A DNA stretch of 56,599 nt, filler included, from Jimgerdemannia flammicorona (lineage: Eukaryota): the NCBI GenBank assembly GCA_003990765.1. It is 2 parts of 2 records of this genome, joined end to end, with 100 filler letters (N's around TTAATTAATTAA, not from the genome) between each part and the next. Parts side by side here need not be neighbours in the genome. Positions count along the whole stretch, not along the records: positions 28,353 to 56,599 come from RBNJ01000577.1; 1 more part is not named here. The stretch is one strand, 5' to 3'. Positions within the stretch are counted from its first letter, which is position 1. Each line of letters starts with the position of its first letter. Shown here one piece after another: positions 3,348-52,688 of this stretch. A program made the position numbers and the translations under genes. The notes under the pieces are model-generated. The model worked only from the letters and a program-made list of their open reading frames with translations, was not told where the DNA came from and did not search any database.

Positions 3348-3358
3348 TATAAATACCC
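3348..3358 (+). promoter_or_regulatory. internal TATA-like box upstream of accessory ORF
   Basis: TATAAATACCC, the same motif as the LTR TATA at ~4566, ~70 bp upstream of the ORF start. Confidence 0.55.
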
Positions 3359-3420
3359 AAGGCAAGAATACTCCACAACTCTTATCCCCCTCTCCTCACA
3401 AAGAAAAAGACAAGACAAGA

Positions 3421-4251: not shown

Positions 4252-4262
4252 GGAGGAAAGAA

Positions 4263-8640: not shown

Positions 8641-8806
8641 AAAATGGGTGGAGTGCTCAGTAAAATTCTGTTCGTGTATTTCCAATAGCTAGAGCTAATG
8701 GCGAAATTGTGGTTATTAATATAATGCTTTCTTACATGAAAGTCTTTGAAATCAATATACAAATTGAAACATATCTTTTCCAATGGATGCTAGAGTCATG
8801 AAATTC

Positions 8807-9129
8807 TTTGAAGTCCTGTTTATTTTTCATCGCTAGGGTGCCGAAGCACCAACCTTGTCTCATCTACCTGAATGAACTTCTTTGAAGCCCTGTTTATTTC
8901 TCATCGCTAGGGTGCCGATGGCCACTAACCTTGTCTCATCAACCTGACTACGTCATATAACCGCAGCCAGCCAAGAGGGGAACAAGGCAGTGCTCTTCGT
9001 CGTCCTTGAAGCCCTGTTTATTTCTCATCGCTAGGGTGCCGATGGCCACTAACCTTGTCTCATCAACCTGACTACGTCATTTAGCCGCAGCCAGCCAAGA
9101 GGGGAACAAGGCAGTGCTCTTCGTCGTTC
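8807..9129. repeat. tandem repeat: one ~74-bp partial plus two ~124-bp units
   Basis: TTGAAGCCCTGTTTATTTCTCATCGCTAGGGTGCCGA... starts at ~8808, 8882 and 9006; the last two units are nearly identical. Confidence 0.9.
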
Positions 9130-9348
9130 ATGGAGTGCTCAGTGCTCAGGCTCACCGATCCTGTCTCATCCCCGTAGAAACCCAAATATGATGACGTAAT
9201 CTGTGATGTAAATCATCATAAGCCACCCACCCTTTGTCATCACGAATATCATCAACTTTAAAAGTATAGAACGTCATGATGATAAATGCTATTGATTTAT
9301 CATAATTTTATATAAACTTCTTTTTTTAAATTATATAATCCTTATAGT

Positions 9349-9999: not shown

Positions 10000-10033
10000 T
10001 GATAATAAATACAGAAGTCCAAGTAACTATAAA
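10000..10033 (+). mobile_element. short LINE 3'-end remnant
   Basis: AATAAA...AGTCCAAGTAACTATAAA matches the LINE tail motif seen at ~21573, ~26753 and ~41449. Confidence 0.6.
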
Positions 10034-10124
10034 TAGGACTTCTTTTGCTTAAACCATTCAGAGTGAGCTAAGTCATATGGATACCTTTTTATGAAAAGCA
10101 ATATATTTCCAAGTTTTTACTTTA

Positions 10125-21607: not shown

Positions 21608-21612
21608 GTATC

Positions 21613-21617
<5 letters not shown>

Positions 21618-21644
<27 letters not shown>
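21618..21644. repeat. (TA)n microsatellite
   Basis: Directly visible after the LINE A tail. Confidence 0.9.
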
Positions 21645-21648
<4 letters not shown>

Positions 21649-22144
21649 AATCTATCTTATTAATTAGCTACTAGTAGTTTACTCTCTCTTTATCTTATCA
21701 CTTTCTGATAGATTATATCAATAAACTAGCTTCTATCAATCTGTCTTTAGAGCAGTACTATATTTAGGAGCTAGTACTTCTCACTACTACTCACTATCTG
21801 AAATCTGTCTTATATCTATATTCTAGTAATTAGATCAAAGATACTATTTTATCTCTATGAAATCTAATATATTACTCTAGTACTTTACTACTAGCACTCA
21901 ATTAATTCTTATCTTACTAGTTTATTACCAATAGTATAACATCTAGTAAAGAATTCTGATTTATCTCCTCTTTAATATTAAATCCTATTTATCAAATCTA
22001 TATTCTTTTTTATTTAAAGCTATCTTAATAGTTCTAGAGGGATAGTTACTTTGGCTTTACTATTAAAATAGTCTAAAGATCTGTCTCATATTATAATAAG
22101 TCACTCTCTAAAATATCTAATCCAACTTTCTCTCAACTGTCTCT

Positions 22145-22320
22145 TTTTTATTTTTTATTTTATTTTATTTTATTTTATTTTTTATCATTACTTAGACTTC
22201 TACTTTATTATCTCCAATCTATATTATACTAATATAGATATATAACATATCTCTCACTAAATCCTATAAGGAGCCTCTCTTCTCTCTATCTTTCTAAAAA
22301 TTTACTATTTTCTCTATAAC
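22145..22320 (-). mobile_element. old LINE 3'-end remnant
   Basis: (TTTTA)n decayed tail plus reverse-complement AATAAAG..AGTCTAAGTAATGATA, a decayed copy of the LINE tail motif. Confidence 0.5.
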
Positions 22321-23076
22321 CATAATAGAATGAGTAGTGAGTAAATAGATGAGATATAATATATAATGAGTTATCATAATAATATAACTATTGATCAAGT
22401 GTGATATATAATATATGAATGATGAATGTAACAAATAATATAAATAATATAAAAAATAATATTTAGCTTATCTTTGCAATTGATACTGCAAAAATTAGTA
22501 CTAATTATTACCTAGTAATAGAGGTCCTGATTATAAAGTATTCTTGATTACAAACCACCTAACAAAGATCATAATCACAAACCTCACCATAGTTACCAAA
22601 TTAGTTACTTATATTTAATCAGAAATTATAGATCAATTTATATAAATACTCTCTAGTTTTTATCTGAAATAAAGACAGTTTTAGTTTAGTCCTTAATATA
22701 AGAATCAAGTCTCTCTCTACATATATACATTTTTCTAAGTCTTAGTAATGACATCTAAGTGACTTTAGTGTTTCTAACTAAACTCCAGAAGCCTAGCTAA
22801 CTTCTGCTAGAACTGAGACTGATATATAAATCTCAAAGACTTAAGTAAACTCATTAAATCTAAATTTTAAGATAAATTTAATCTATATATAGTAAAGAAC
22901 AAGTCCCTTATAACTATAGTTAATAAGAAGAGTACTACTGCTATAACTACTTTCAAGTGAGTACTTTCTTATACTGAAGACTTCTTAGTATATATTGAGT
23001 ACTAAGTCTCTAAGTAATATCTTGTTTTCCTAATTATTTAAAGGATAAGAGAGGGGTAGAAATAAGAGTTATTATA
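22321..23076 (+). repeat. 5' LTR of A2
   Basis: Long collinear match to the A1 LTR, differing mainly by C>T/G>A. Confidence 0.88.
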
Positions 23077-26679: not shown

Positions 26680-28252
26680 ATTTTTTTTTTTTTTTATTTT
26701 TTTTTTTTTTTTTTTTTTTTGTTTTTTTTTTTTTTTTTTATTTTTTTTTTTTTATAGTCACTTGGACTTCCTTCCTTTATTATGCCCATCTATCCCATAT
26801 AAATACAGTGATCCCACTCCCTATCCGATCCCCCTAGGGGGGCCCCTCCCCCCTATACCTTCCTGACAAAAGACCACTTTGTCTAACACAATCTCCACCC
26901 TCCCACCACTCTGCTCACAGATCCTTACTACCAAACTGCACTGTTGCCCCCCTGAGGACCCCAAACCACTCACCATCCCATCAGCAGATCTCCCAACAGC
27001 TCCTCCCACCTTGATACCTTCTCTTACAGCCCCAAACACCATTCCTCCTCAAATACAAAAAGCCAATGCTCTGCCAGTCTCACCCACACTACTAACACCC
27101 ACCCTACAGTAAGCCAGCTATCACCCACCCCATCTACAAGCTGAGATCTCAAGTCCTCCCAGCAGTCCCCCTTCCTCGCTGGCCTATGCCCTACACCCAG
27201 TCTATTCCCTATTTCTACCCAAAATTTCCCCAAAACCTCACACTCTCTCAACCAATATTCTGGTATCTATACATAACCCCAACATCATAGCACTCCTCAC
27301 AATCGAAATGGCCACTGTCCACCAGATGCCTAGTGCAGAAATTCAACATGACATTCCTCTACAGCATTCTCCACCATATTATCCAGAACTTGGGAGGAAG
27401 CCACCTCCACACCTCTGCACTCCAAGTCCAGATACCTGCCCAGTCCCACTTCTCGCTGATCCCTGCTGCCTGCCAGCCACTTGGCCAAAGATTCTGGCCA
27501 AGACCCTGCTGACACTCCACTCCATCCCCAATATCAAACATAACAAGTGGAGTACTCCCCAGGAGCAGACTCTTCCATCACCACATACTAGGTCCCCACA
27601 TCACCTCCCTCTCATCGCCTCACCAGCACAGGTCAATCTGGTATGCTCCATCTACCACTCCCCACTAAAAGCCCTTAAACCACAGCTGCTGAGTTCCATT
27701 TAACCCTACCAGAGAGAGCAGATCATCTGAGGACCCTTGGGGGGAGGTTCTCATCTCCCACACCTTCTGTAGTAGAGGCACCCAACCTCCTCCCTGCAGT
27801 TCAGCAGCTCACTTCAACCACCAGGCTCACAAGCAGTGCAACCTCTTAGAGAAATCCACAAGGCCAAGACCTCCCCTAACCATCGGTATTGTAAGAGTAT
27901 CCCAACTGATCTGGGACCTCCTCCCTGCCCAAATTCAATCTCTAGCCACTTTCATCAGCCTCTTTACCACCCAAGCTGGGAAGTCTAGGTGATAGGCCAT
28001 ATACCATAGCTTGGAGAACTAGTATACATTCAGAATGGTTACCTGCCCTGCCAGAGAAATATGGCGGCCTCCCTAACCTCAAAGGGCCTCCCCCCAAATG
28101 GTTACCCTGCTCTCCCACCACACTTGTGGCAAGACAGAACTATATACAGAAAGGAACATACTCAGATACCACACCACCTCACCAGTAAAGACAATTGTTC
28201 CAATGATGTCTCCATCCACTAGCCCATTCCTAAGCACCATTGTCTCACTTTT
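26680..28252 (-). mobile_element. L1/Tx1-type LINE C, 3' part
   Basis: Poly-T 26680-26753 then TATAGTCACTTGGACT; the minus strand encodes the ORF2 C-terminus (GGLGLVDF, WLPPKFW) and runs into the gap. Confidence 0.9.
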
Positions 28253-28352
28253 NNNNNNNNNNNNNNNNNNNNNNNNNNNNNNNNNNNNNNNNNNNNTTAA
28301 TTAATTAANNNNNNNNNNNNNNNNNNNNNNNNNNNNNNNNNNNNNNNNNNNN
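28253..28352. other. artificial contig linker
   Basis: 44 N + TTAATTAATTAA (stops in six frames) + 44 N; flanking pieces are 28252 and 28247 bp. Confidence 0.95.
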
Positions 28353-28991
28353 TGGCCTTCTTTCTTCAGACCTGTCTTGTCCTTGAAGGAGTCCCTGTAG
28401 AGCTTTGACCAGGATATCTTCTTTATCTTCCTTCTTGTCATGGTCACTCCAGGTAGTTCCTTGCCTGACATCAAAGAATCCTTGGGCTGCATCCACTTGC
28501 TCTTCAGACCTTCTGATGCCTAGGGTGTGGACATGCTGGGCGATATTCAGAGGAATCCCATTCATGAAGGTCATTGGACCTATGATGTCTTGGTTGGTGG
28601 CACTGAACCCGGCAGAGTGCATCCTCTTCTGGATTCTTGTGAAGAAGGCTCTGGGTGATTCTTCAAGATTCATCTTCATTCCCATGATGGATTCCTGGGC
28701 CTTGTGGTGGGTTTCATTTCCTGCATACTTTTCTATGAGCCAGTAGACCATGGCCTGATATTCTAGCTCATAGGAGACTGCTGCTTGTATCTGTCTTGCT
28801 AGCTCGGAGTCTGGGTCGTTTGCTGTTCGATAGAAAATCCCTCTGGCTGGTTCTCTGAGCTGAGCTTTGTAGATGGCGATTTTCCTTTCATCTGAGAGAT
28901 TCCTCAGGGCTGCAATTCCCTCAATTCCATCAAGGAATTCTCTGGGGTCTTCCTCTGGGTATCCTGCAAAGATTGGCAATGAGGTGGCCAT
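28353..28991 (-). CDS. retrotransposon gag (capsid-like), truncated by gap
   Basis: LPIFAGYPEEDPREFL...LREPARGIF...MKMNLEESPRAFFTRI...FMNGIP; open frame. Confidence 0.85.
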
Positions 28992-29543
28992 TTCTTCATC
29001 ACTTTCTTCTAATTCTGATTCAAATTCGGATTCTGATTCTGATTCACTTTCTGAACTGTCACTAGAGACCAGGGTGCTTGGGTATCTTGAAGATGGTGTT
29101 CTGGTCCTTGGATGAGGTGGAGTAGGCCTAGGTATCCTTGTAGGAGCTACTTCCGGTTCTGCAAGAGGTTGTGGTAGGGGTTCTATTGGTGAAATTGGTG
29201 GGACTAGTGTGGGGTACCTGGCTGTGAGGTGTTGGGTCCAGGTAATAAAGTCTTCTAGATCTTGTGCAAGTTCTCCAAAATCTCCAGCAGGGCTGCCTGT
29301 GTTGTCTGGTTGATCTGGTTGATCTGGTTGAGGATTTTGGGCTGTACTGCCTCCTGCTTCTGGTTGAGATCCTTCTGATGCTGGGTAGTTGGCAAGTCTT
29401 GAGGTGATTACTTCTCTTCCTGTCCAGATGCTAGTGATGACTGGTTCTCTTGTAGTGGCAGAGATTGGTGTTGTATCAAATGTATCCAGTTTGACTGTGG
29501 GTTCTTGTGAGCTGAAAAGTCACATCGATTTTAAAAATCCCGT

Positions 29544-35360: not shown

Positions 35361-37430
35361 TGTAAGAGGGTTGCTTTTTAGGGTAACTGTTACATAGTTC
35401 TGGAAGGGTTTTCTAGAAGTTCTGGATATTCTGGAAGACTATTTTCTTAAGGTCAAAATCAATTTCATATGGAGTACATCCTCTATACTTATTGATTTCA
35501 AGATTGGGTTGATGTCTCAATCAAAGTTCCTTTTTTGGACTAGTTCTGGATGTTCAGAATTTTCCATATTTCAGGAAGTTCAAGAAACTAAGACCAGCTT
35601 AGTTGAATTGATGTATTGCTGCAGACAATATCTAATTAGGAAATTTCATGATAGAGTTAGGAGTGGGACCTAACAGAGAGTGGATTTACTTAAGAGTGGT
35701 TTGTGGGTTATTAAATAGGTTTATTTGCTATTCATGATATTGCTATACTAGGAGTAGTTGTGTGAAGAAATATTGTGGAAAAGTGCTCAGGAGTTGTATT
35801 CAGATTGTTCAAGTCTGAGATTCTGAGGTCTGGGGGAGGGGGTATTTATACTAGTGAGGGACTATCTGGACTATGCTAAATATAGATGTAGCACTTAGTG
35901 ACTTGCTGAGTCAGAATGCAGTCACATAGTACAAGTGTGATCTGATATATCAAGAGATCATCTGACTGTTGAGTCAGTTCACAGTCACATTGTACAAGGC
36001 TAATCTAACTATACTATGACTGCTAAGCTATCTATAGATTTAGATGCTGTCTGGGTAGTCTTCAATGACATCACCATCAATGATATTATCTCTGATGAAG
36101 TAGTCATTTAGGAAGAGTTGTTCATGGATTAATTCTCCTTATTCGCTGAGATAATAATACATTGAGACTTCATCACTGTCCCATAGGATAGCATCATCTG
36201 TCTCATATACTGGGTATGGAGTTAGTGGGTGAAGGAGTGGTGCATCATCTTCACTTTCATTGGATTCGCTGTCTGCATACCTTCTATAGGTTATAGCACT
36301 ATGAGTCACAGGGTTGTAGTAAGCTGGTAGCTATGGTTCATATCACTCATACTTGGGTAGTGAGGTGGTTGGTTCATTCTCGAGGGTTGTCTGAAGATAC
36401 AGGTTGTATTCTCCTGTCTCTTTATTATAGTTGAAGTAATTGGAGGTAAATGTGAGTTGATATTTATACCAGTGGTCATTGTCCCAATAGGTCTTGTAGG
36501 TGATTATGAACTGTTGCAAGTTCATCAGTAAGGTTGGAGGGGTGATCAGGGTTGGTAGGGATCCTTAGCTTGAGATTATGTCAGTATCAGAGGGATTATT
36601 ATCTTCTACTTCATCTTTGTTAAATCAGATTATATTGTAGACATCCTTCATGATATATCTGACTTGAGGCATTTGCAGGATATGGTCATCAGGGTGCAGA
36701 AAGGTTCTGTCTGTGATCTGAATGTATTTGAGGTACTTGTGGTTAAGTTCTTATATCATATCATCAATTTGGCCATAGAACAGGGTAGCGACCATTTCAG
36801 CAGTAGTAACTCAGAGGTAGGGAATAATAGTGCTGAACTCATAGAAGAGTTCTCGATGTTTATGAGTGATGAGTTTCTGGTGTTGAGATATCTGGGTAAT
36901 GTCCATATTATGGTAGTGTTCAACCATGTCTTCTAGGAGGCAACCAATCTGGTAGTAGCTTGAGATTTATCTGATTCGGTGGGCCTCACTAAGTATGTTC
37001 AAGACATTTCATTGGGCTTTCACAAAGTAGAGAGGTGCTAGACTATGGATATTCATGAGGGGCAGAGGGGGTGTGACTCGGTTGATAATGGTATTCCAAA
37101 TGTCAGCATAGATGTGGTTGTAGATCTCAGTGGTCATATTTGTATATTTAGGAGTTGGTGTTGTATATTTGGTTTGTTTTGGTTCTTCGTTTAATGCATC
37201 TTGGTGCTTAGTATATATGTTTTTGGTTCTAATTGGTAAGATTCTGTTTGTATAAATCTTGTATTCTGTGACTTCATGTTGACTCAGCTTTATGTACTGT
37301 GACTTTGGTTTGACTTAGCTTCATGATCATGCAGGTGATTTCCAGATTTATTCAGAGATCGTGTGTGATTTTGGTGGCTTGTTCAGAGGGTGATATATGA
37401 TTTCAGTGGCTTGGAGGTTGTGCACTTACA
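35361..37430 (-). repeat. 5' LTR of element C (~2070 bp)
   Basis: Perfect 6-bp inverted termini; PBS adjacent at ~35346-35357; TATAAATACCCC at ~35839-35850; partner LTR not in window. Confidence 0.75.
36040..37137 (-). pseudogene. LTR(U3)-encoded accessory ORF, divergent family member (~365 codons)
   Basis: One frame from ATG 37137 with scattered stops: HIYADI...MNIHSLAPLYFV...YYQIGCLL...LITHKHRELFYEFSTIIPYL; motif order matches 39354-40190 and 3421-4251. Confidence 0.65.
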
Positions 37431-38875
37431 GATATGCTATTATCTCAATTCAATGAACTAAAAGAACAGTTTGCAGAGATCTCATCAAGTTTGCTGAACT
37501 TTGAAAAACTCTACTTTCTGTAGCATATTTCTGAGTCAACTCAAACATTTGGTATACTAAATAATACTAATACAGAGATAACTAATCATTAATATTATAT
37601 AGAAGTTAAGATACCATATCAATGAATAAATAAATATAATTCTCTTCTCTAAGTTATTAAGTTTGTAGAGTGCTAAATAGTACTTGAGGACAAGCTTGAT
37701 TATGTTACAACCAGTAAGTTCATAGATACCTTAAGCTCACTAATAACTGAGAAATACTAATATCTGAGTGCTCATATCTCTGAAGATACACTCTATATTG
37801 ATAAAGTTTCAAAATTTTTTGGGCTATATAATCTTAAACTTACTACTCAGATATTTTTTCATAACCTCTAGTTTGCATCTAGAAATAGATATCATTATCA
37901 AGTAAATAAGAAGAATCTTCTCAAACTTTCAAATCCAACAGTAAGTTATTTATGCTAAATCAGTCTGTGAATCTTTTTTGTAATATTTCTAATATCTCTT
38001 CTTGATCTCTGTAGATTAATATCTTTACCACTTTATCAATTGGAGTTCATAACCCATTTGTGAATATAAAATTAAATTTAGCTATATTTTGTCAACTTGT
38101 TCACTGCAAGCAACAGTTCTATAGGAGTCTATAATATGACTAGGTAGTGTTGAATAATCTCACAGATAAGTAGTTTGAGATAAGACAAGGTATAGATAAA
38201 TATCTTTTTGTCCAAGTTTGCCTTCTCTTCAAAATCAAGCAAGATCACTACGTCTATCAACTTATATACTTGGAGTGGTATAACATAGTAGATATTGAGA
38301 ATCCTAGTACTAAAAGCATAGTCTTTCATAATTGTGAGATAGGAATAACTATTGCTATATAGACTGAGTAGTTCAATATTATATTCATGAATATAATTAT
38401 TCATATAGTATATATATAACTCTTGTTTAAAAAATATGATTCAGTAAGAAAGAACTTAATAGATAGATTGAATATATATTCTTTTCATTTTTATTTAGTA
38501 AATAAGTATGCAGATCATATATTATGAGAGAAACCTTTTTTTTATTTGTAAATATATAGTTAGACTAAATAGTTAAGTATATGAATCAAAATACAATTAT
38601 ATAAACTTAGCATTACTTACAATTGTGATTGGTTTTTATTTGAGGAGTATATAGTAGTATTAGGAGTATGTATTCAATAAAAATTATATATAATATAAGA
38701 GTTTATAGATTATTAAAACCAAATCTTTATTAATATAAATTGAGATTTTTATATAGAGTATTTATAGTATTTATTATTCATAGTATTCATAGTATAGTAG
38801 TATTTATAATATAGTTTGCAGATTCATTATAGATATATTTTACATAGTAAATGTATCTCATCTTTTTATATATAT

Positions 38876-40432
38876 TGTCATGTAGTGGTCGCTGAGTCCT
38901 TCAAATATGCCAGATTCTCTTCAAGGTGTATCTCTTAGACTAACTCAAGTTTGTTATAAGCAAGTTCTTATTGGAGTACCTTCCCAAGGTCTTATAGTCC
39001 TCAAACTTCTTATCTTTAACTGTCTTGTTATCTCTTAGATTGCTTGCAAGGAAGTGTGTGTATTGCACTGAGTTGACTGACTTTATTTCAGAGGAAATAA
39101 GAGGGGTATTTATACAAAATATAATTCAATGGTTGCTAAGATATAAAGCTAAATATAAATTCCAATAACTAAAACTACTAAGTTCTAGGGCTGGCATTGA
39201 TGGTTGTACAGGTTTAGGATGCTGGCATTATTTGGTATCACATCAAAATGCCAGTGCTGGAACAATTTTGCATCACCTTAGAATATCAGTGCTGGCATTA
39301 TCCAGTGTTACATGAGAATACCAGTGCTGGCATTATCCAGTGTAACAAAGAACTTAGAGCAGAAAGTTCAGGATTATGAGGGCTTCATCATCATCATCAC
39401 TGAAATCATCATCATCACTGAAGGAGATGAGATACACGAATTTGTCATGCAGGTCACACATTTTGCATACCTCGATGTCGCATGGGATGACATCATTGCC
39501 AATGATGTCATCACATTCGGCTGTGGCAGGGAAATCAGGAACAAGGTCTGGAGCTCTCCAGTCTATGAGGTTCTCTTCCACAAAATAAGGAACAAATGTG
39601 GGGTCTTGGGGAGATCTAACCCGGATGCTTGGGCCTTGGAATACTGAGATCAATCCTTGCAGGAATTGGTCTGGGTTGTCCTGAAGAATGGGGTGCCAGA
39701 AGTCTTCTACTTCTTCACTGTTGAGGGTGATAGTGGACTGGGCTTCTGTAGCCACTCTGGCTTCTAGTGCATTGATATGGCAGGATGATAGGTCTCTGAA
39801 GTCTGAGACTCTAATATACTCCAAGTTGGGGATCGACCATGGTGTATACCTGAAGATCTGATGGATCTTCTTAGCTATCCTCATTTCATATATATCCATG
39901 GGAGTGGCATCTTGTAGCTCTTGGGTGCTGGTCTGTGGGAACTTCCAGCAGAGGAGGTTTCCTATTTCATACTCCTGCCACATTTGGAGGCATTTGGTGG
40001 CAATAGTGATTCTTGTTTCCATTTTACAGTGATAGAGGATAAAGTGATAGGGGTCTGCAGTACCCAGGTTGACACTAGGAGTCCTTCTTGAGTGGGTCCT
40101 CATGGCTCTTCTGATGTCTTGGAACATCCTTTCTTTGACTGAGATACCTTGGTGGTTCCTTGACCTTGAGGTTTGGCAGACAGCAGGCATTTCATTTGTG
40201 GTAAGTCTTTGAGCTATTTTGGGATTGGTGGTTCTTGTTGGTTACTGCTACTGCAGTTCCTTGATCCTTCTTTTATATTCTTCAGGATGCTTATACTGTG
40301 GTCACAATGACTTACAGTTGGTCATCATTGCTCATCTTGTATGCCGTATGATCTTCTTGTACTTCAATCTAGTGGCTTGCAAGGAAAGGCTGTCTCCTGT
40401 GCTGATGTCATCATTATGGGGTCACCATTACA
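38876..40432 (-). repeat. 3' LTR of D (1557 bp)
   Basis: TG...CA ends; direct repeat of 51151-52688 with an extra 18-bp duplication at ~39395-39422. Confidence 0.96.
39354..40190 (-). CDS. LTR(U3)-encoded accessory protein, 278 aa, unknown function
   Basis: Intact ORF wholly inside the LTR, upstream of the LTR TATA (~39104-39114), with TATAAAA at ~40271-40278 before it; homologs in A1 and C. Confidence 0.85.
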   Translation of the reverse strand: MPAVCQTSRSRNHQGISVKERMFQDIRRAMRTHSRRTPSVNLGTADPYHFILYHCKMETRITIATKCLQMWQEYEIGNLLCWKFPQTSTQELQDATPMDIYEMRIAKKIHQIFRYTPWSIPNLEYIRVSDFRDLSSCHINALEARVATEAQSTITLNSEEVEDFWHPILQDNPDQFLQGLISVFQGPSIRVRSPQDPTFVPYFVEENLIDWRAPDLVPDFPATAECDDIIGNDVIPCDIEVCKMCDLHDKFVYLISFSDDDDFSDDDDEALIILNFLL

Positions 40433-40789
40433 TCTTCCTCCTGAATAAAGATCTTTCTGAGTATCCTTATTCATTGGTCCAGTCCTGAAAAATTTGCTGA
40501 TCCCATAACCTCTGACAAGGGGTCGAAAAGTGGTGTTTATGGGCTGGCATCTTCTCTTTGTATTTTGGCATAATAGTGAAGGGTCGCTCCCTTCATATAG
40601 AGCAAGGGCCTGATTCTGATCTTGACCAATCAGTTGATGGTTTGAACTCCTCTGACTTCGAAAGTCTCACGGATGAGTAGTTGCCAGTGCCGTATCCCTT
40701 AGAGAATAGTCCAGACAGATAGCCTGCTGGTCACAGGACATGCTGTTACGATTTGCAGACTAGAACCTCATGGGCGGTCATCACGTTTT

Positions 40790-41434
40790 GCTTCTCTTAT
40801 ATAGGTTCATGGTATTTCTTGAGTCTGTTCCTATGTACCATGGTAGGCAGTATAGTCCCTGAGATTTTTCTAAGCCAGAAGGTAGTTCCCTTGATATCTT
40901 GCACATAGAAGAGTCCTTCCCATTTGGGCTCCAGTTTTTGCGACCATGAGGCTTCTACCATATTTCGATACAGTAGAACCTTTTCTCCAATTCAGATGGG
41001 TTCTAGGGCCTTGTGATTCTTTTCCGCATTCTTCCTTGTCAGTGCTTGTGACTTGGTGATGTAATCTTCAGCCTTCTTCCTGATTTAGTGTAGTCTCCAG
41101 ATTTCTGCATCAACCTGTCTCCAAGTTAGGTCTAGATTTGTGGCTAAGGTTCCATCAGAATCTTCTTCTCTGAAGAGCAGCTCTCTTGGGGTAAAATGTG
41201 TGCTCTGTGACCATATGTCTTGTAGGACAGAGAGGGCAGTTGGGAGATAGTTATCCCAATTCTCATATATCTCTGAGATCTTCGCTAGGATGTTCTTGAG
41301 GGTCTTGTTGATTCTTTCTGTCTGTCCATTTTCTTGAGGGTGGTACATGGTGGTCTTGATGTGCTGGATCTTGTATTTCTGATATATTATCTCATAGAAT
41401 CCATTGACAAATTCCGTTCCATGGTCTGTTGTGA
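40790..41434 (-). pseudogene. integrase C-terminal half of D
   Basis: GTEFVN, YHPQENGQTERINKTL, WDNYLP, KLEPKWEGLF (GPY/F-like). Confidence 0.9.
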
Positions 41435-44400
41435 TTTTTTTTTTTTTTTATAGTCACTTGGACTCTGTCATTTATTATCAGTCTATAGTTAAATATACAG
41501 TCTTCTACCTACTATCCGATCTCCATAGGAGGGTCGCGCCCCACCCCAATCCCAGTAAAGGCCACCTTCTCCCCAATAACTCTCACCCTTCCCCCACTCT
41601 GCCTACAAATTTTCCCCACCAGATTGCGCCTCTGGCCCTTCTGTATCCTCCAACCAAGCCACCAGCCCATCAAGGTATCCTCCATAAGATTCTGCCACTG
41701 CCCCAGCCAGACCTCCAGGCCCAGTCTCCTCCCCTCCTCGAAAACAAATAACCAGTGTCCGGCCAGCCCTACCCAAATGGCCAGTGCCCAGCCAAGCATG
41801 AGCCACTCTATTCGCACCCCCCCTACCAGTCTGTTGCTCAAGTCCTCCCACCGCCCCCGCATATCGGAACCCCTGCCCCTCACCCCCAAAAGGATCCCTA
41901 CAGATTGCCAAAAGTCACTAAGTACCTTGCACTCTCCTAACCAATGTTCTGGCATCTGTACGTAACCCCCTTCCTGACCCACATTATAGCACTCCTCGCA
42001 GTCAAAAATACCCCCCTCGACAAGGTGACCTGAGCGATAATTGAGCATAACATTCCTCCTCAATATGCGCCACCAAGTCACCCAATACTTTGGCGGCATC
42101 CAATTTTTCACCTCAGCACACCATGCCCAGACACTCCGCCAGTCCCACTCCTCGCCAATTCCAACACCTTGCCAACCACTGGGCCACAGATCCTGGCCTG
42201 GTCTCCTCTAGCAGTCTATTCCATCACTAATGTCAAACTCAAGCAATGGGACCCCACCCAGTAGCACCTGGTCCCATCTCCACATCTCCGGGTCCCAATC
42301 CACCTCTCCTTCATTTCCCTGCCAATGGATCCCGATGCGGTGTGCTCCCTCTGCTATCCCCCACCAGAAGCCTTTAAATTGCAATTGAGCAGTGTTCTGA
42401 AGTCCAACCAAAGACAGGAGATCACCAGTTGAACCCCGAGGCGATGACTGCCTCTCCCAAACCTTCTGCAATAGGGGAACCCAGCCACCCCCTCTCAATT
42501 CTATGGCTCTCTTCAACCACCAAGCCCTTAAGCAGTATAGCCTCTTTGGGAAGTCAACCAGTCCTAGTCCGCCGCTTGCCACTAGTAGGGACAAGACCTT
42601 CCAGCCTATCTGACTCCGCCTTCCAGCCCAGATCCATCCCTTGGCAAGCTTCAACAGCCTCCTTACCACTCAGGGTGGAAAATCCAGATGGTACACCAGA
42701 TACCACAACTTCGGCAGCCAGTAAATGTTCAAAATTGTAACACACCCTGCCAGGGACAGGTGATGGCCCCCCCAGCTCCGCAGGGCCTCTCCCCAGATGC
42801 CAACCCACTGCTCCCACCAGAGCCTGGGTAGTACTGACCCATACACCGAAAGGTAGATCCCCAAGTACCGCACTGCCTCACCAACAGGGACAACTGTTCT
42901 GATAATCTCCCCACCCACCAAACCATTGCCAAGCACCATGGTTTCGCACTTATGCCAATTAAGTCACACCCCAGAATTCCTCTCATACCACTCTATTGTC
43001 TCCTTGAGCTCCTCAACATCTGCAATTGATTCCAATCTGACCACCATATCATCTGCAAAGGCCCCCACCTTCCACTCAATGCCAAAAATGGAGAGCCCCA
43101 CTATCCTCCGCCTGATTCTATCCAATAGCAGTTCCAGAGAGAGAGCATACAGAATGGGGGACAATGGGTCCCCCTGGGGTACCCCCCTGCCCAGGGGAAA
43201 GGCCACCCCACGATGTCCATTACATATGAGTGCCGCCCGACTCCCTTCCAGTAGACTGACTATTACTGACCAGAACTGGTGCGGGACCCCAGCCCTATCC
43301 AAAACTTTTGCCAGCCAACCTCGCCTCACCCGGTCGTAAGCTTTCTCCTGATCCAAGAAGACCAGTTGCCCATCCAATCCACAAGCTCATGCCCCTTCAA
43401 TAACGCCATGTATCCAGGCTGTGCCATCTCTAATGAGCCATCTCCCTACAAAGCCCCTCTGCTCAATGCCTAAGATTTGCTGTGCCACCTTTGTAGTCTT
43501 GCAACCACCACCTTAGTAACCAACTTCCTGTCCATATCCAGGAGCATTATCGGCCTCCAATTCTTCCAGTCCTCTTGCCTTCCTTTGTTCTTGTAGAGCA
43601 ATGTCACCAGCCCCAGATCCTGCTCCCCCACCCATCTCCCTATCCATAGAATAAGATCATACAGTGCCGTCATCTCCCCCAGTACCCCTGGAATCCTGAC
43701 TATCTTCTTCCAAAAATCCCAGGGCAGACCATCTTCGCCAGGCGCCATACCCAAGATTGTCGCAGCAAGAACCTGGTGGATCTCCTCCTCTTGGACTGGC
43801 AACACCAAGTCATCCATCCCATCTACCTGTGGGGGTTGCCAATCTTCTAATGCATGGCCGATCGCATCAGCATCTACCCCACCCTCCTCCTCACTCCACA
43901 ATCCACTCCAGTGCTCCTTCAAAGATCCCAGAACATCTTGAATTCCATGGACCAGGACCCCATCCGAATTGAGGACCTCCTCCCACCTTTGTTGTACTCT
44001 CCTTGCCTGCAGAGCCCTTGTGAGGAACTTAGAGGGCCTCTCTCCTTCCTCCAAACCCTGCCACCATAACCTAGCTGCCAAGCCCTTTACCCTCGCCTCT
44101 TCCTCCTCTCGCAGCACCTGTTGTAGTTCAACAATCTCCTTTTTCACTCATATGGACCTCTAATTCTCCTCTCCCTCCAACATCACTAGTCCCGCCCAGT
44201 CATCTAAGAGCCTAGACAGTCTACTAGAAGCCCATTTCACTTTTCGCCTCCTCTGTTGCCCAGCCACCTTGCCAGCCTCACTCCAGTATGTTTTGGCCAA
44301 TGCCTTCATTCGCATCCACCGAATATCAACAGGGGTACCTTCCCGCCTCCAACTCGCTATCTGTAGCTGAATGTCTGCAGCCCATCCATCCCACCAAAAT

Positions 44401-47307
44401 ATATCATCTAACAAGGAGAAATTGAGGCACTAATGTCCAGGCCCATCCCTGCTACTCCCAAACTGACCCTGTCCAATAATCCCCCAGTGATCCAACCAAG
44501 GACACCACTCCACCTCCAGTGATCTCCAAACATCCAAGCCCCAGCAGCTGGCCATCAGAATCCAATCAATTCTTGTCCCCAAACCTTCTGCCCAATGCAT
44601 ATATACCCTCCTATCCCCCCAGTACTTCCTACCCACATCCACCAGAGCACTCAGCCTTTCCACTTCCTCCTATGCCACAAGTCCTCCACTCCGACCCTCA
44701 ACTCCTCATCCACCATCTGTTCTGTCTAACAGTGCCTCCCGAACCATATTGAAATCTCCACCCAAAACATCCATTCCAGCCTCTGTGAGCATCCCACTCT
44801 CTTGAAGACTCTCCACCCAGTCTACACATTCACCTCTCACAGCGGGGCAGTAACAAGATCCCACTGTAATCAGCTCCCATCCAGTACGTATCCATTCACC
44901 CCAGACCAGTCTATTTCCCCAGCTCTGCACATTCCTAATCTCCCCTCTGCCTTTCCGTATCAGAATCCCAACCTTTCCCATCCAAACTGCCTCACCGCCC
45001 CATTCCTTCATTCATTCCAGTTTATCCAAGACCTCGTCACATCTGACATCCTGCAAGAGGAAGAGATCGGCCTCCAATCCCTTCAGCCAAGTAAAAATAT
45101 TCCTATGCTGATAAGTGCCCCGCAGCCTGTTCACGTTCAAAGAAAAAATGTTGGTTGTACTATTCATAAGGGATATTATATTGTTTCAGATGAGTCCTCT
45201 ACTGCTCCATGGCCCCTTCCTCCTGTGCCCTGTCCAGGTCGTGCTCAGCAATAACTTCAGCTTCCTCGGCTCTCTTGGCCTCCAATTCAGCCAGAATCTC
45301 AGCCATCTCCACATCCTCCTTCTCCTCAAACTCCTCACAGTACTCCACACAAGCCTCCTGCCAGAGCTGCAGCCCATGCCTCTTATTCCAACAGTGGGCA
45401 GCCCACTCACCCGCCACCACAGCCAGAGCAGCTTCCCTCTCCTTATCAACCTCATACCCCTCCTCCTCTAAGTACACTGCCAGAATCTCTGCCTTCAATG
45501 CTGCCTCTACTCCATTGCCCTGCAGGATCCCTGCCCAATGCTCATCGCTCATCGCCTGGAGGTCGGCTTCCCCCAGCTCCTCTGCCACCAAGTTATCCAT
45601 CATCCGGCATATCCAGAGCAGGTTCCCCACCTCCTTCCCTCCCGGGGTTGCTGGTCTCCCTCCATCCAACATCATAGTATCAGCCCCTACACTCGCCGAC
45701 TCATTCCATCTCTCCTCTGGGACATCTACCAATTCCTCTTCTTCAGTCACCTCTACTAATCCCCCCTTCTCCCCATTTGGTACTCCAAAGCACACTTGTT
45801 GAGCACCGCACATCAGCACATCCTCCCCTGCCCTAACTCTTGCCGCTGGGTCTCTTCTGATAAGGGGAGATGGTGAAGGTAAATCCGCCCAGGTTTCTTC
45901 CCAAACCTCAAATGTGCCATCTGCATAAGGATCCTTGCTCGGCACCTTCTCGGCCTCCACCTGCCCTCCCTCCTCGCTCCTCCCACTATCTGCAGCCCAG
46001 ACACTCTCCGTAGCCCCTCCAGTGGTCGCATCATCACTCGCCTTCCTTGTCACCTCTGCTCCCATTTTTGCCAACAATTCCTTCTGCCTCCTGTGCCCTT
46101 GAGACCTCTCCCATACCTCTTTGTTGATGCGGACTCACTTTCCTCCAACTACCTCAAGATGTGTCGCCACCTCGAATGCCTCCCATGCCTTTGCCCTCCT
46201 CTCCACCGCTCCACTCAACTCCTCCAGTACTTCCAGCAAATCCTCCTCCTCCTCCTCACTCCCCTTCACTCTCGTCACCTTGCATAAGAAAGCTCCCCAC
46301 AATATCATTGAGGGCCAGTCCCGAGCCTTCCCAGTAGCCTCCCGCCCAGCCAACCTAATCCTGACGTCCACATCCCCTGTCCGGAGAGAGGTTCCTTCCC
46401 ACACTCTGAACCCAATATCAACCACCTCGCCATACTCCGCCATGATCTCCTCGACTCTCTTCCTCATCTCTACTGTAGTAACTGTGGGTACTCCTTTTAC
46501 CAGAAGTTGCACCACTCTCGGGTCCCACCACAGACATCTCACCATTGGTACACACACCTCGCCCACTGTCATCCCTGCCTTCAAAGCCTCCTCCAGTGGT
46601 CCAGCCTCCTCAAATCCCACCTCTACCCCTTCCAGGCCCTTCAGGAACTTCACAGACACCGCACCGCTCATCTGCTTCGCGATCAGCCCCAGAACCATTT
46701 TCGCTGTCACCACCAAGCCCTAGAAACACATCATGACTGCAAATTCCGAGATCGACTTTTTGAGTAATGGAGCCATGGCCAGCCCCATCACACCATCCGC
46801 CAGGTCCCTGGTCCTCACGCCCTTCCCACTGCTCGGCTCACTCCCATCTAGATTTTTTTCCAGATCACCTGTCACACCCCCATCAGTAGTCCCCGCCCCA
46901 GCCTCTACCCCCCCTGCTCTACTCCTAAGGCCCTCCAGAGAGGCACCCCCACGAGGTTGCTGTCCTGTAGCCTTCACCAGCACCTTCCCTCCCCTCAGCC
47001 AGCTCTCCAGACCAGCCCCCTGCTGACCCTTCTTCACCTTCTCTGCGAAGCTTGCCCTGCCAGATCCTTGCCCTCCTGTTCCACCCCCTCTGCCACCATG
47101 TCCTCCCGCCAGCAGACCCCTCATACTGCCCCCCAGACCAGGGCCTCTCCCTACTTGCTGCCATTTGAACGCTCCAGGGCCACCCTGCCCAGTATGCACC
47201 TCAGAGTGCATGTTGGTTGCCATGATACTAGTAGCTTGTCTCCAGAAACTGTGTCGAAAGTGTTGCCAGAAGGTTGTGTAACCTGAATGTTACCGGAGAA
47301 AGGTGTC
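41435..47307 (-). mobile_element. L1/Tx1-type LINE D, full length (~5.9 kb)
   Basis: TSD GGTCTGTTGTGA(TTT) at 41423 and 47309; ORF1 ~47223-45199; ORF2 ~45165-41512 (FSLNVNR, GGDFN, RIDWIL, PGEDG, LDQEKAYDRV, GVPQGDPLSP, FADD, YLGI); tail AGTCCAAGTGACTATA(A)n. Confidence 0.95.
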
Positions 47308-47879
47308 CGGTCTGTTGTGATTTGCTTTGGTGTCTTGTAGCGGCAGATGATTTCTCGGTGCAGGAAGTCAGCTATAGAGAGGGCATTGGCTTCTTGTAAT
47401 ACTCCTGCCTCTATCCATTTGGTGAAGAGGTCTACAATAACTATAATATAGCGGTTTCCTGATAGTGTTAATGGTAGTGGTCCAATGATATCCATTGCGA
47501 TGTGGTGGAAGGGGATAGGCTCAATTCTTGATGACCTGAGTGCCTGGTCTTGCTGATCTTGTTTCTGTTTTTGGCACTTGTCACACCCTTTGACAAATTG
47601 GCGCAGGTCTTCTTCCATCTTGGGCCACCACATGGTTCTTCTTGCCTTGTCGTATGTGTTGGTTCTTCCTAAGTATCCTTGCTCGTGTACTTCCTTCATT
47701 ACTTGATACTTCTTGTGTTCAAGTATTACTAGCTTTCCTCCTTTTCTGAGTATAGTGTTGTCTAATTCAAACTGTTTCTAAGTCCGGTTGATGATGGTGA
47801 TTGTCCAGGGTTCGAGGTGGTTGGGCATCTTCCACTGCCTAAGATAGCTGATTAATCCATAGTATAGCTCCTTATTCAT
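47308..47879 (-). pseudogene. integrase N-terminal half of D
   Basis: HEQGYLG...WWPKM...CDKCQ (HHCC-like), MDIIGPL, VDLFTKW, PKQITTD. Confidence 0.9.
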
Positions 47880-50800
47880 GTTGAATAGTCTTGATGGGGG
47901 TGTTTCGGGGGGTCCTCGAGAGTGCATCAGCATTGGTGTTGGTCTTTCCTGAGCAGTGCTTGATAGTACAGTCATACTCTTGTAGCCTGTAGATCTATCT
48001 GGCATATATTCCTTTGGGGTTCAGAGTGTGGAATAGTCAGGCAAGAGCAGAATGGTCTGTTTGAATAGTGAAGTGTTTCCCAGCTAAGTAGTAGTGGAAC
48101 TTGTCTACTGCCCAGACTACTGCTAAGCATTCAAGCTTGCATGACTCGTAGTTCTGTTCTACTCTGTGGGTACCTCAGCTTGCATAGGAGATGACATATT
48201 CATGTCCATCTTTCTTCTGAGCTAGGACTGCTCCAAGTCCTATAGCACTCGCATCTGTCTGCAGGATGAATTCTAGGTTCCAGTCTGGTCTTCTGAGGAT
48301 GGGTGCTTGGGTCAACCTGATCTTGAGTTCATTGAAGGTTTCTTGGCACTCCTTGGTCCATTCGAATTTGGTCTCCTTCTTCAGTAGCTCATAGATAGGT
48401 GCTGTAATATTGGAGTATCCTTTGATGAATCTTCTGTAGTAACTGGCCAGTCCAAGGAAGGCGTGGACTTCTGTGGTTGTTCTGGGTCTCGGGTAGGCTG
48501 CAACAGCCTTGATCTTCATGGGGTCTGTGTGGATTCTGGTCTGGTTGATGAGGTGTCCTAGGTAGGTGATTTCTTGAGCTGCAAACTTGTATTTCTTGGG
48601 CTTGATGTAGAGGCCATGCTCCTTGAGCCTCTTGAGGGCTAGCTGTATGTGATTGACATATTTCCATGCAGTATTGCTGAAGATAATCATATCATCAACA
48701 TAGACAAAGAGCCATTTTCCAATCTCATTGCTGAAGACTCTGTTCATCATTCACTGGAAACTTGCTGGGGCATTGCACATTCCAAATGGTATTCGCAGAT
48801 AGATATAGGTGGCGTCAGGTGTGATGAAGGCTGATTTCTCACTGGCATCTTGAATACTGGCAAGGTCCATTCCTATGACTTCTTCAGTCTTGTATTCTGG
48901 GATCTTGGCTTCAGAGTGAAACTTCTTGACCTTGAGGGTAATGTCTGATTCTTGTTCCTCCTCATCATCGCTATCAGCTTGAAGCTCTGGGGGCTGGTCA
49001 TCTTCTTCGGCTTTCCTTTTTGCTTCAGCGGCTTCTTGCTCATGTTTCTGTTGGCAGATTTTCCTGACTTCACTGATACAGGACCAGCAGTCATTCAGGT
49101 GTTCAGAGCAGTACATTCTAGTACCATGGGGGCATCTTCCTTGAAGGGCATAGCCATCAATGATCTTATTGTACCACTGCTCATCTGTGAGCTTGGGTGT
49201 CTTGCTCTTGTTCTTGTTCACTGAGTACATGAAGACCTCTGTGTCTTCTTCATCTCCTTCCTCCATGTCTGGTAGGACTCCTTTGTGGACATTGATAGAG
49301 ACTTGTACCTTTCTTCCTCTGTAGTTGATCTGCATCTTCTGGGCATTGAGGTCAATGATGGCCTTGGCCTTGTGAAGCCATTGGTTGCCAATGAGGATAT
49401 CATAGTTGGTGGTGCTTGTGACAATCACATCTACTGGGATGGTAGCTTCTTCTATCTTGATGGGGACTTCTCAGATTTTGCCAAGGGGGGTAGCTCATGT
49501 ACCATCTGCTGTGACATAGACCATCTTGGTAGACTCTTCAATATCCCAACCTAGGCAGTCAATTGCCTTCTTACTCATGAGGCATCCTTCAGCACCAGTA
49601 TCAATGATGGCATCAAAGATATAGTCTTCGATCTGGCAGGGGGTATAGGCTGATGTCTTGCACTGGTCTTCGGATTCTTCACCTGAGTTCTCGGATTCTT
49701 CCTGTGCATTGTGGGCTTCTACAATCTTGTACTCTTGATTCTTGGCTGTAGTTGCAAGTCCTACTCTCAACTGCTGTCTGAAGGCAGGAACTTCAGCTAG
49801 TTGTCCAAAAGTGGCATTGACCTTCTGTTCCTTGAGGTCCTTGTAGATGTCATACTGGTGGATCTTGGTCTTGCACAGCTTCTGTTCCTTCTTGCTTTCG
49901 CTTTCTCCTGAGACTGGAGTAGTGTCTTCTATGATTTGGTGGGCAGCTTCGTCTAACTCCATGTCTTGATCAATCTCCTCGGGTTGAGTCATGCTTTGAA
50001 TAGTGATAGCTGGGGTCTTCTTTAGTCTTTCAACTGGCTTGCTATTGCTCTTCTTGTCATAGGGCTTGGACTGGGTTCTGGTACCTTTAGTAGCAGGGTA
50101 GAATTCGAGCTCCTTATAGTATTCTTCATCATCAGTATTACCAATCTCCTCGATGACTACTGCATTGGTTTGTTCTCTGGTTCTGCTAGCATTGCTTAGT
50201 TGGGCTTTGCATCTTGTTTCGGTCATGCAACTCTTTGCATAGTGGCCTTCTTCTCTACATCTGAAGCATATAATATTGCATTCTTCTGTAGTAACTGCAA
50301 ATCTCTGCACTGGTCTCCTGTTAGCACTTCGGACTTCTCTAACAACATCACTAAGGAGTGCAGTCATCTCAGCGAACTACTTGGCGAGTTCTTCCACTGG
50401 ATCAGCTTTGGCTGTCTTGGGGGTAGGTGGGGTTGGTTATCTGTTTACGACTGTGGCAGATAAGATACTAGTTGGCTTTGATGGCTCCATCTTGATGCCA
50501 GTTATATTCTCCATTGAGTGTTTGGCAGGGTGTCTGGCAGTTCAATATCTCTGAGCAAAGACCACTTTCTGATCAAGGGTCAGTGTAGCTGGGGTAGACT
50601 GGATTGCTAGGGCAATTTCAGGGTGAACTCCTTTGAGGAAGGTTGAATCCACTATTTGTTCCTTGAGGTAGTCATCATAGCCAGCCAAGACAATCTGATG
50701 GCAAATTCAGGTATAGAATGAGTTGGGATCTTCACTAAGTCTCTGGCAGATAGTATTGAGTTGATCCTTGAGAGCTTGCTTGATCTCTTCGGTATAATAT

Positions 50801-51030: not shown

Positions 51031-51150
51031 CTTGTCTTGAATTCTTACAGGGGTAACTCTTGTAGTCAGGGTAGTTGTTGTGGGGGTTGTTCATTTTTCA
51101 GCTTGAAAGTGAGAGATTCATCTTGAATCACCAGCCAATGGGCACCAAGT

Positions 51151-52688
51151 TGTCACATAGTGGTCGCTGAGTCCTTCAAATATACCAGATTCTCTTCAAG
51201 GTGTATCTCTTAGACTAACTCAAGTTTGTTATAAGCAAGTTCTTATTGGAGTGCCTTCCCAAGGTCTTATAGTCCTCAAACTTCTTATCTTTAACTGTCT
51301 TGTTATCTTTTAGATTGCTTACAAGGAAGTGTGTATATTGTACTAAGTTGACTGACTTTATTTCAGAGGAAATAAGAGGGGTATTTATACAAAATATAAT
51401 TCAATGGTTGCTAAGATATAAAGCTAAATATAATTCCAATAACTAAAACTACCAAGTTCCAGGGCTGGCATTGATGGTTGTACAGGTTCAGGATGCTGGC
51501 ATTATTTGGTATTACATCAAAATGCTGGTGCTGGAACAATTTCGCGTCACCTCAGAATACCAGTGCTGGCATTATCCAGTGTTACATGAGAATACCGGTG
51601 CTGGTATTATCCAGTGTAACAAAGAACTTAGAGCAGAAAGTTCAGGATCATGGGGGCTTCATCATCATCATCACTGAAGGAGATAAGATCTATGAATTCA
51701 TCATACAGGTCACACGTTTCGCGTACCTCGATGTCACATGGGATGACATCATCACCGATGACGTCATCACGTTCAGCTGTGGTGGGGAAATCGGGAACAA
51801 GATCTGGAGCTCTCCAGTCTATGAGGTTCTCTTCCACAAAATAAGGAACAAATGTGGGGTCTTGGGGAGATCTAACCTAGATACTTGGACCTTGGAATAC
51901 TGAGATCAATTCTTGCAGGAATTGGTCTAGATTGTTCTGAAGGATGGGGTGCCAGAAGTCTTCTACTTCTTCGCTGTTGAGGGTGATAGCAGACTGGGCT
52001 TCTGTAGCCACCCTGGCTTCTAGTGCATTGATACGGCAGGATGACAGGTCTCTGAAGTCTGAGACTCTAACATACTCCAAGTTGGAGATCGACCATGGTG
52101 CATGCCTGAAGATCTGATGGATCTTCTTAGCTGTCCTCATTTCGCATATATCCATGGGAGTGGCATCTTGTAGCTCTTGGGTGCTGGCCTATGGGAACTC
52201 CTGGTAGAGAAGGTTTCCTATTTCGTACTCCTGCTACATTTGGAGGTATTCGGTGGCAATGGTGATCCTTGTTTCCATTTCACAGTGGTAGAGGATAAAG
52301 TGATAGGGGTCTGCAGTACCCAGGTTGACACTAGGAGTCCTTCTTGAGCAGGTCCTCATGGCTCTTCTGATGTCTTGGAACATCCTTTTTTCGACTGAGA
52401 TACCTTGGTGGTTCCTTGACCTTGAGGTTTGGTGGGCAGCAGGCATTTCGTTTGTGGTAAGTCTTTGAGCTATTTTGGGATTAGTGGTTCTTATTGGTTG
52501 CTGCTACTGCAGTTCCTTGATCCTTCTTTTATATTCTTCAGGATGCTTATACTGTGGTCACAATGACTCACAGTTGGTCATCATTGCTCATCTTGTATGC
52601 TGTATGATCTTCTTATGCTTCAATCTGGTGGCTTACAAGGAAAGGCTGTCTCCTGTGCTGATGTCATCATTCTGGAGTCACCGTTACA
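51151..52688 (-). repeat. 5' LTR of D (1538 bp)
   Basis: TG...CA ends; adjacent to PBS; direct repeat of 38876-40432. Confidence 0.96.
51628..52446 (-). pseudogene. second LTR copy of the accessory ORF
   Basis: Same frame as the 278-aa ORF but broken by transition-derived stops (TGG>TAG at ~52234; another at ~51877). Confidence 0.85.

Follow-up and report, generated by a model that had tools for sequence, protein, structure and literature searches.

To our knowledge, protein genes that lie wholly inside a long terminal repeat (LTR) have been described mainly in a small number of retroviruses. In mouse mammary tumor virus (MMTV), sag is an open reading frame (ORF) of about 300 codons within a unique 3' region (U3) of more than 1 kb, placed ahead of the core promoter and a short repeat region (R), and it is present in both LTRs. 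Tas/Bel-1 of foamy viruses, which has an internal promoter, and Tax of human T-cell leukemia virus (HTLV) are transactivators encoded by 3'-terminal accessory genes, and the Cassandra elements, which are terminal-repeat retrotransposons in miniature (TRIM), carry an independently transcribed gene embedded in both LTRs. Here we describe a 278-codon ORF (39354-40190, minus strand) inside the LTRs of element D, a Ty3/gypsy LTR retrotransposon in the genome of the Mucoromycota fungus Jimgerdemannia flammicorona (GenBank assembly GCA_003990765.1). The window, by which we mean the whole stretch of DNA analyzed, is 56,599 nt long and consists of parts of two records joined by 100 filler letters, with positions 28,353 to 56,599 coming from RBNJ01000577.1; all coordinates count along the window. 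Our finding is a variant of the retroelement accessory genes, borne by the LTR of fungal Ty3/gypsy elements.

Judged by analogy, MMTV sag appears to be the nearest analogue of the LTR ORF, since the layout matches although the type of protein does not. MMTV, a vertebrate retrovirus, encodes Sag as a type II membrane glycoprotein, whereas the product of the LTR ORF contains no hydrophobic segment, has no sequence or fold relative and belongs to fungal Ty3/gypsy elements that lack env. The possible separate promoter of the LTR ORF and the basic N-terminus and acidic C-terminal tail of its predicted product would fit a nuclear activator such as Tas/Bel-1 or Tax; however, there is no homology to either, the internal promoter of foamy viruses lies in env rather than in the LTR, and an activator role for the LTR ORF is a prediction. 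The Cassandra gene is a pol III 5S RNA gene and not a protein gene. The additional ORFs of plant and fungal elements (the env-like ORFs of Athila and Bagy-2, Grande gene23, RIRE2, Retand, Boty and Retrosat2 ORF0) resemble the LTR ORF in that they are lineage-specific, obscure in function, kept in most copies of a family and without host homologues (PMC7264820, PMC3485330). As far as these accounts describe them, all are internal, either in the interval from the 5' LTR to gag or past pol and ahead of the 3' LTR, whereas the LTR ORF sits within the LTR, downstream of the polypurine tract (PPT); the text considered from PMC7264820 places all plant additional ORFs in the internal region, and that from PMC3485330 places Retrosat2 ORF0 between the 5' LTR and gag. 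Our survey of the literature on ORFs within LTRs, with subscription journals and bioRxiv supplements outside its scope, returned only work on retroviruses (MMTV and the microRNAs of foamy viruses) or irrelevant uses of the phrase, and the transposon literature on Rhizophagus and Endogonales contained no LTR-borne ORF by title or abstract.

The window is rich in transposons and holds two host genes, and 116 stop-to-stop frames of at least 90 amino acids were scanned against Pfam. Along the minus strand of element D, the matches follow the order zf-CCHC, aspartyl protease, RVT_1, RT_RNaseH_2, Integrase_H2C2, rve and rve_3. This gene order, gag, protease, reverse transcriptase (RT), RNase H and integrase, is that of a Ty3/gypsy LTR retrotransposon. 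Element D is bounded by two direct repeats with TG...CA-type ends (TGTAA...GACA(A)): the 3' LTR of about 1.56 kb (38875-40432, minus; TGTAA...GACAA) and the 5' LTR (51150-52688, minus), which are 92.3% identical across 1558 columns and correspond to the 1.55-kb LTRs of an initial annotation of this DNA. A PPT, AGGAGGAAGA (40433-40442, minus), abuts the 3' LTR and a sequence resembling a primer-binding site (PBS), TGGTGCCCATTGG (51135-51147, minus), directly follows the 5' LTR. Together they fix the LTR ends. The same boundaries appear in soil-metagenome run X1, in which contig cover falls at the LTR end at 38875 and the loose ends of contigs read into the PBS. A total of 2364 contigs from this run match the LTR region, 386 of them at 99% identity or above, and they represent a high-copy family in soil DNA, although they are uninformative on expression. 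The initial annotation had also listed a target-site duplication; its PPT and PBS were recovered, and the only candidate duplication shared by the flanks is a 4-bp ATAT in AT-rich surroundings, which is not diagnostic.

The ORF runs from ATG to TAA entirely within the 3' LTR, starting 242 nt from the LTR start and stopping 479 nt before the LTR end. As it is downstream of the PPT and present in both LTRs, it lies outside the internal region between them. A TATAAAA motif (40271-40277, minus), the candidate promoter of the ORF, is found 81-87 nt ahead of the ATG, and a conserved LTR core (39082-39114, minus), composed of TATAAATACCCC (39114-39103) followed by AATAAA (39087-39082), begins 240 nt past the stop. 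The copy in the 5' LTR (51631-52446, minus) is in the same frame and carries three in-frame stops and an 18-nt deletion. These positions bear out the earlier description of one ORF shared by both LTRs, open in the 3' and stopped in the 5' copy, upstream of the TATA/AATAAA core and with its own TATAAAA about 85 bp before the ATG, a motif that recurs in three of the four families compared below.

We found that the ORF belongs to a protein family whose members occupy the same place in other elements. A tBLASTn search with nine family proteins recovered three loci in the window, namely both LTRs of D and 3421-4251 (plus) in element A. The latter element is a chromovirus, and the locus falls in its 3' LTR region. 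The copy in A has three in-frame stops and no frameshift, aligns to the D ORF without gaps over 218 amino acids at 33% identity (E 2e-40), extends through the shared C-terminal motifs, and is matched by the metagenomic proteins P0008 and P0021 at 60% and 52% identity, respectively. Despite this protein match, the DNA of the A and D LTRs cannot be aligned. The putative 3' LTR of A (3197-5047, plus) follows a PPT-like AGACAAAAAAAAAGAGGA and contains TATAAATA at 3348-3355, a TATAAAA motif about 72 nt ahead of the ORF and the core at 4566-4577; its bounds are approximations, as no partner LTR is present in the window. A decayed and distant copy may also exist in the presumed 5' LTR of element C (approximately 36150-37170, minus), where a six-frame profile search matched profile positions 7-143 with an E value of 0.015. 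This frame contains far fewer stops than the other two, encodes an acidic C-terminal EDDAPLLHPL, and lies about 300 nt upstream of an exact TATAAATACCCC core (35839-35850, minus), ahead of the coding region of C. The initial annotation had placed copies in two other element families; the one in A is clear, while the one in C is tentative and is suggested by its profile match together with the position of the core.

The 12-mer core TATAAATACCCC has eight matches in the window against 0.72 expected and is present in every ORF-carrying LTR. Furthermore, a metagenome contig (locus L001) contains an intact ORF of 323 codons, whose ATG is preceded by TATAAAA at a distance of 65 nt and whose stop is followed, about 190 nt further on, by TATAAATACCCC...AATAAA. 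D, A, C and L001 thus have a common layout in which the ORF is followed by the TATAAATACCCC LTR core, with a TATA motif 65-87 nt ahead of the start in D, A and L001. Searches of metagenomic proteins identified six matches among 284 candidates from an index of 5.8 billion proteins, six profile matches (138-342 amino acids, none fused or annotated) among 1.84 billion representatives, and ten matches with a broader profile. Overall, the family amounts to only about 13 metagenomic clusters in 5.8 billion proteins, and all external relatives are metagenomic, from JGI or ENA contigs of 540-4848 nt. Full-length members from four subfamilies all begin MP(A/P)...QT and end P--LNF. A scan of metagenome loci gave 380 pattern matches and one true relative (L001), whereas 215 pattern matches in viral contigs and 199 in prokaryote genome contigs included no relatives. 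A search of the ESM Atlas reached a top score of 0.89 to unnamed clusters, which serves as a lead only.

Two other parts of the window were compared with the family. The single LTR remnant in the window (22335-23076, plus) is without ORF homology, and the stretch at 21644-22334 scored no better than shuffled sequences in a purine/pyrimidine alphabet (122 versus a mean of 137). The remnant is AT-rich and retains only the 3' part of an A-like LTR; compared with 4252-5047, its purine/pyrimidine identity is 96% and its base identity 76%, and it is hypermutated, with 113 C>T and G>A changes versus 40 in the reverse direction. A Gag-like frame at 28308-29519 (404 codons) was rejected as a family member (hhalign probability 0.05). 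The frame (28353-29519, minus, about 390 codons) includes a Ser/Glu-rich stretch and directly adjoins two runs of N at 28253-28352, and it seems to be another element inserted into pol of element C.

Comparisons between families point to constraint on the encoded protein. By the method of Nei and Gojobori (NG86), the ratio of nonsynonymous to synonymous divergence (dN/dS, omega) is 0.24 between D and L001 (bootstrap 0.14-0.37) and 0.22 between D and A, where dS is saturated; omega between families is therefore about 0.24 and not near 1, with the caveat that NG86 is biased downwards here. As a control, pN/pS is 0.43 in frame and 0.91 and 1.43 in the two off-frames of the same alignments. Mismatches at codon positions 1, 2 and 3 number 100, 59 and 128 between D and L001 and 132, 109 and 190 between A and L001. 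Together with the protein match at E 2e-40, the codon-position pattern and the off-frame controls, these comparisons identify the ORF as a genuine protein gene under purifying selection rather than a chance frame, as had been proposed at the outset. The gene also appears to be old. The integrases of D and A share 30% identity over 128 amino acids and 31% over a further 65, RT/RNase H shares 31% between D and C, and a chromodomain is present in A and absent from D. Since the ORF (33%) is about as diverged between D and A as the integrase (30%), it is probably an old, retained component of the elements, and this divergence fits long vertical retention and argues against recent capture of a host gene.

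The copies in the window are decaying pseudogenes that are being eroded by transition mutation, largely at CpG. Transitions account for 99 of the 101 mismatches between the LTRs of D, 42 of them in a still-visible CpG context, and the observed/expected ratio of CpG is 0.12 and 0.30 in the LTRs versus 0.77 in a nearby kinase gene. With five close relatives as reference, the 39 amino acid differences between the two D copies comprise 19 derived in the 3' copy, 14 derived in the 5' copy and six that could not be polarized. The missense load of the 3' copy, with its many derived changes, is no lower than that of the 5' copy, which indicates that its open frame is a matter of luck and not of maintenance. 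The initial annotation had called the 3' copy intact; its frame is indeed open, but its protein has not been preserved.

We next consider how the ORF might be transcribed. The ORF lies between an upstream TATA and the LTR core with its poly(A) signal, so reverse transcription copies it into both LTRs. We hypothesize that transcription from the upstream TATA yields a short monocistronic mRNA, about 1.1-1.2 kb long, that ends at the LTR poly(A) signal; promoter, ORF and poly(A) signal would then form a self-contained unit within each LTR. The genomic RNA would begin at the downstream core TATA, which would place the ORF in U3, as sag is in MMTV. In element C, AATAAA lies about 115 nt past the core TATA, compared with 25-27 nt in A, D and L001; given this distance, the core is better read as a TATA box than as a poly(A) element. 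LTR and ORF pieces also occur as contigs in runs X9 and X18, which were guessed to be RNA, and these are uninformative on transcription, strand and ends. We are highly confident that the ORF is real and LTR-borne, and its motif arrangement suggests that it probably lies in U3 with its own promoter.

The predicted protein combines an N-terminus that is basic in three of four subfamilies, a helical core of some 110 residues and a disordered, acidic tail with LNF-L at its end; the family motifs are W-P-L-DN-DQ-L-GL--F-GP and PYFVEEN-IDWR. The first 45 residues of the D ORF include eight Arg and have a net charge of +7, and this charge is +7 or +8 in D-type and L001-type members. The tail, acidic in all members, contains 18 Asp or Glu in 63 residues in D. 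No transmembrane-like segment was found, as the maximum 19-residue hydropathy is 0.85 in the D ORF and 0.64-0.97 in five members; the Arg-rich N-terminus, acidic tail and lack of a transmembrane segment noted earlier were thus all recovered. Known relatives were sought and no significant match was obtained: the ORF matches no Pfam family at E values up to 1 and 19 members match none at E below 0.003, the best match of a profile search against PDB sequences had an E value of 0.77, and Foldseek searches gave nothing convincing (best E 1.3 in PDB and 0.26 in BFVD). In each of two AlphaFold2 models, for which alignments of 18 and 19 rows were used, residues from about 47 to 150 form a helical core and the tail is disordered. 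Compared with 48,161 chains by VIA-align, the best Z was 4.9 for model 1 and 5.9 for model 2, both below the noise level stated for the tool, and for model 2 at least 20 of the 50 chains listed were helix-turn-helix (HTH) DNA-binding domains (TetR, AraC, GT-1 and sigma) aligned at residues of about 60-110, a resemblance that is to be taken as a lead only. An antisense frame of 111 codons (39312-39647, plus) overlaps the part of the ORF that encodes the acidic tail; its GAT repeats read as runs of Ile, and it seems to arise from the repeat and not to be a gene.

Since the predicted protein has a basic N-terminus, a helical and possibly HTH-like core and an acidic tail with hydrophobic motifs, we reasoned that it could be a nuclear regulator. 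It would act in trans in the nucleus on behalf of the element, and we tentatively propose a function similar to that of a transactivator, a suggestion drawn from these composition and motif features. An anti-silencing role may also be considered.

Taken together, the explanation that we favor is an accessory protein gene borne inside the LTRs by a clade of Ty3/gypsy retrotransposons of this Mucoromycota fungus, to which we assign a probability of roughly 0.55. A number of observations weigh against it. The LTR status of A and C was deduced from one LTR each, and in C an upstream TATA is not clear. Between-family dS is near or past saturation, and the two LTR copies of D, which are expected to have been neutral since insertion, already give an omega of 0.42 (0.25-0.80), from which it follows that NG86 is biased downwards by transition-heavy mutation. 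The N-terminus of the A-type subfamily is weakly basic (net charges of +1 and -1). The AlphaFold2 models are poor, with mean pLDDT (predicted local distance difference test) of 53 and 55 and pTM (predicted template modeling score) of 0.41 and 0.49, and the likeness to HTH domains appears in only one of the two, at Z of 5.9 or less, which is below the stated noise level of the tool. The promoter, mRNA start, poly(A) site and expression of the ORF are predictions from sequence motifs, and the second TATA could instead act as a poly(A) efficiency element of the fungal type, in which case the ORF would lie in R.

The last point leads to the alternative that fares best, although we consider it distinctly less probable than a location in U3. 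In this alternative, the upstream TATA (40277-40271) would be the sole LTR promoter, TATAAATA...AATAAA would form a composite poly(A) signal, and the ORF would lie in a long R of about 1.15 kb. The genomic RNA would then carry the ORF as its first cistron, and short transcripts ending in the 5' LTR would be a further source of the protein. This arrangement would account for the TATA 65-87 nt ahead of the ATG in D, L001 and A, and for the AATAAA only 25-27 nt past the second TATA in these three, a spacing that implies a very short R under the U3 model; moreover, annotations of plant elements include long R regions, with 2023 bp given for Retrosat2 in the text considered from PMC3485330. However, the genomic RNA would be truncated by a strong poly(A) site in the 5' LTR, 1.1 kb from the cap, gag would become a downstream cistron, and element C, in which AATAAA follows the core TATA by about 115 nt and an upstream TATA is not evident, does not conform. 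We therefore retain the U3 placement with a separate promoter as the preferred layout.

Two other functions were weighed against a transactivator-like regulator, and both appear unlikely. First, the protein could be a self-limiting factor for copy-number control, whose dose would rise with the number of LTR copies, solo LTRs included, and which would damp transposition; Ty1 p22 is reportedly a copy-number-control factor of this kind. The layout agrees with this idea, as the gene is duplicated with each LTR and is independent of the integrity of gag-pol, but the protein shows no likeness to Gag. When the window was searched in six frames with the profile, no match fell in gag regions, and a link between the ORF and Gag was rejected on this basis. 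Second, and similarly improbable, the protein could serve in nuclear export or packaging of the unspliced RNA of the element, as a Rev/Rex-like or CERV-like adaptor whose Arg-rich N-terminus would bind RNA and whose C-terminus would carry a Leu-rich export motif (LNFLL). The Arg-rich N-terminus of D-type and L001-type members and the conserved C-terminal P--LNF-L are compatible with such an adaptor, and a precedent is offered by an accessory protein encoded upstream of Gag in Cer1 of C. elegans, which, as far as PMC10309623 describes it, is needed for export of genomic RNA. The Arg-rich stretch, however, is not conserved in the A-type subfamily, the assignment of the motifs is putative, and no splice sites or RNA element were identified in support of an adaptor.

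It is very unlikely that the ORF is a host gene fragment captured once into an LTR and carried passively, without a role for the element. LTR retrotransposons do transduce pieces of host genes, according to the portion of PMC7264820 considered, but the ORF is found at one and the same position in three or four families with integrases that share only 30% identity, full-length members with conserved start and end are known from four subfamilies, and the changes show a purifying pattern. A non-element homologue was absent among 1.84 billion representatives, and with no match to a host gene the capture explanation is largely refuted. Finally, a chance open frame in non-coding LTR sequence, for which nothing speaks beyond the low stop-codon content of the ORF strand, is refuted by the tBLASTn match to a copy with unalignable DNA and by the codon-position pattern and off-frame controls.

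The remainder of element D and its surroundings are as follows. The matches to gag (CCHC), protease, RT, RNase H and the N-terminal part of integrase lie at 47154-50376 (minus), in broken frames, and the C-terminal part of integrase (rve_3) lies at 41088-41447 (minus), where pol ends without a chromodomain. Between them, a nested non-LTR retroelement (41448-47153, minus, bounds approximate) with an RVT_1 match and a strong skew of C over G interrupts the integrase. Element D is dead, given that its pol frames are broken and its integrase is split by this 5.7-kb insertion. The non-LTR retroelement is present in three copies, at 10000-21608 (plus), 41448-47153 (minus) and 26741-28246, that are 63-65% alike; RVT_1 matches lie at 15353-15949 and 42967-43386, GC skew is about +0.45 or -0.45, and the first copy terminates in a poly(A) run (21590-21608). 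The host genes between the transposons are a single-exon protein kinase (5798-7006, plus), whose best relative is a J. flammicorona protein at 71% identity and which is the gene with a CpG observed/expected ratio of 0.77, and a short phosphofructokinase-like fragment (7815-8390, minus). The kinase match fits an Endogonales-like Mucoromycota fungus as the probable source, and a Mucoromycota hint from the ESM Atlas agrees. A self-match of 8798-9011 to 8872-9135 at 76% identity marks a tandem duplication of about 75-125 nt at 8798-9135.

LTRs are treated as non-coding control regions and are masked by annotation pipelines, which may explain why this family has no annotated member. If the gene is under selection, a solo LTR could be a surviving gene and not just a promoter. 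It is possible, though well short of probable, that all LTRs of this clade, including solo LTRs, are autonomous genes encoding a new kind of regulator, which would act in trans and combine an HTH-like helical core with an acidic effector tail. In that case, no other protein encoded in an LTR (U3) would have been described before outside retroviruses, and the dose of the regulator would follow the number of LTR copies and persist after gag-pol has died. Fungal Ty3/gypsy elements would thereby gain a retrovirus-like accessory layer, and this family would offer a tractable case in which to ask how retroelements come by their regulators and how they deal with decay linked to CpG methylation in early-diverging fungi.

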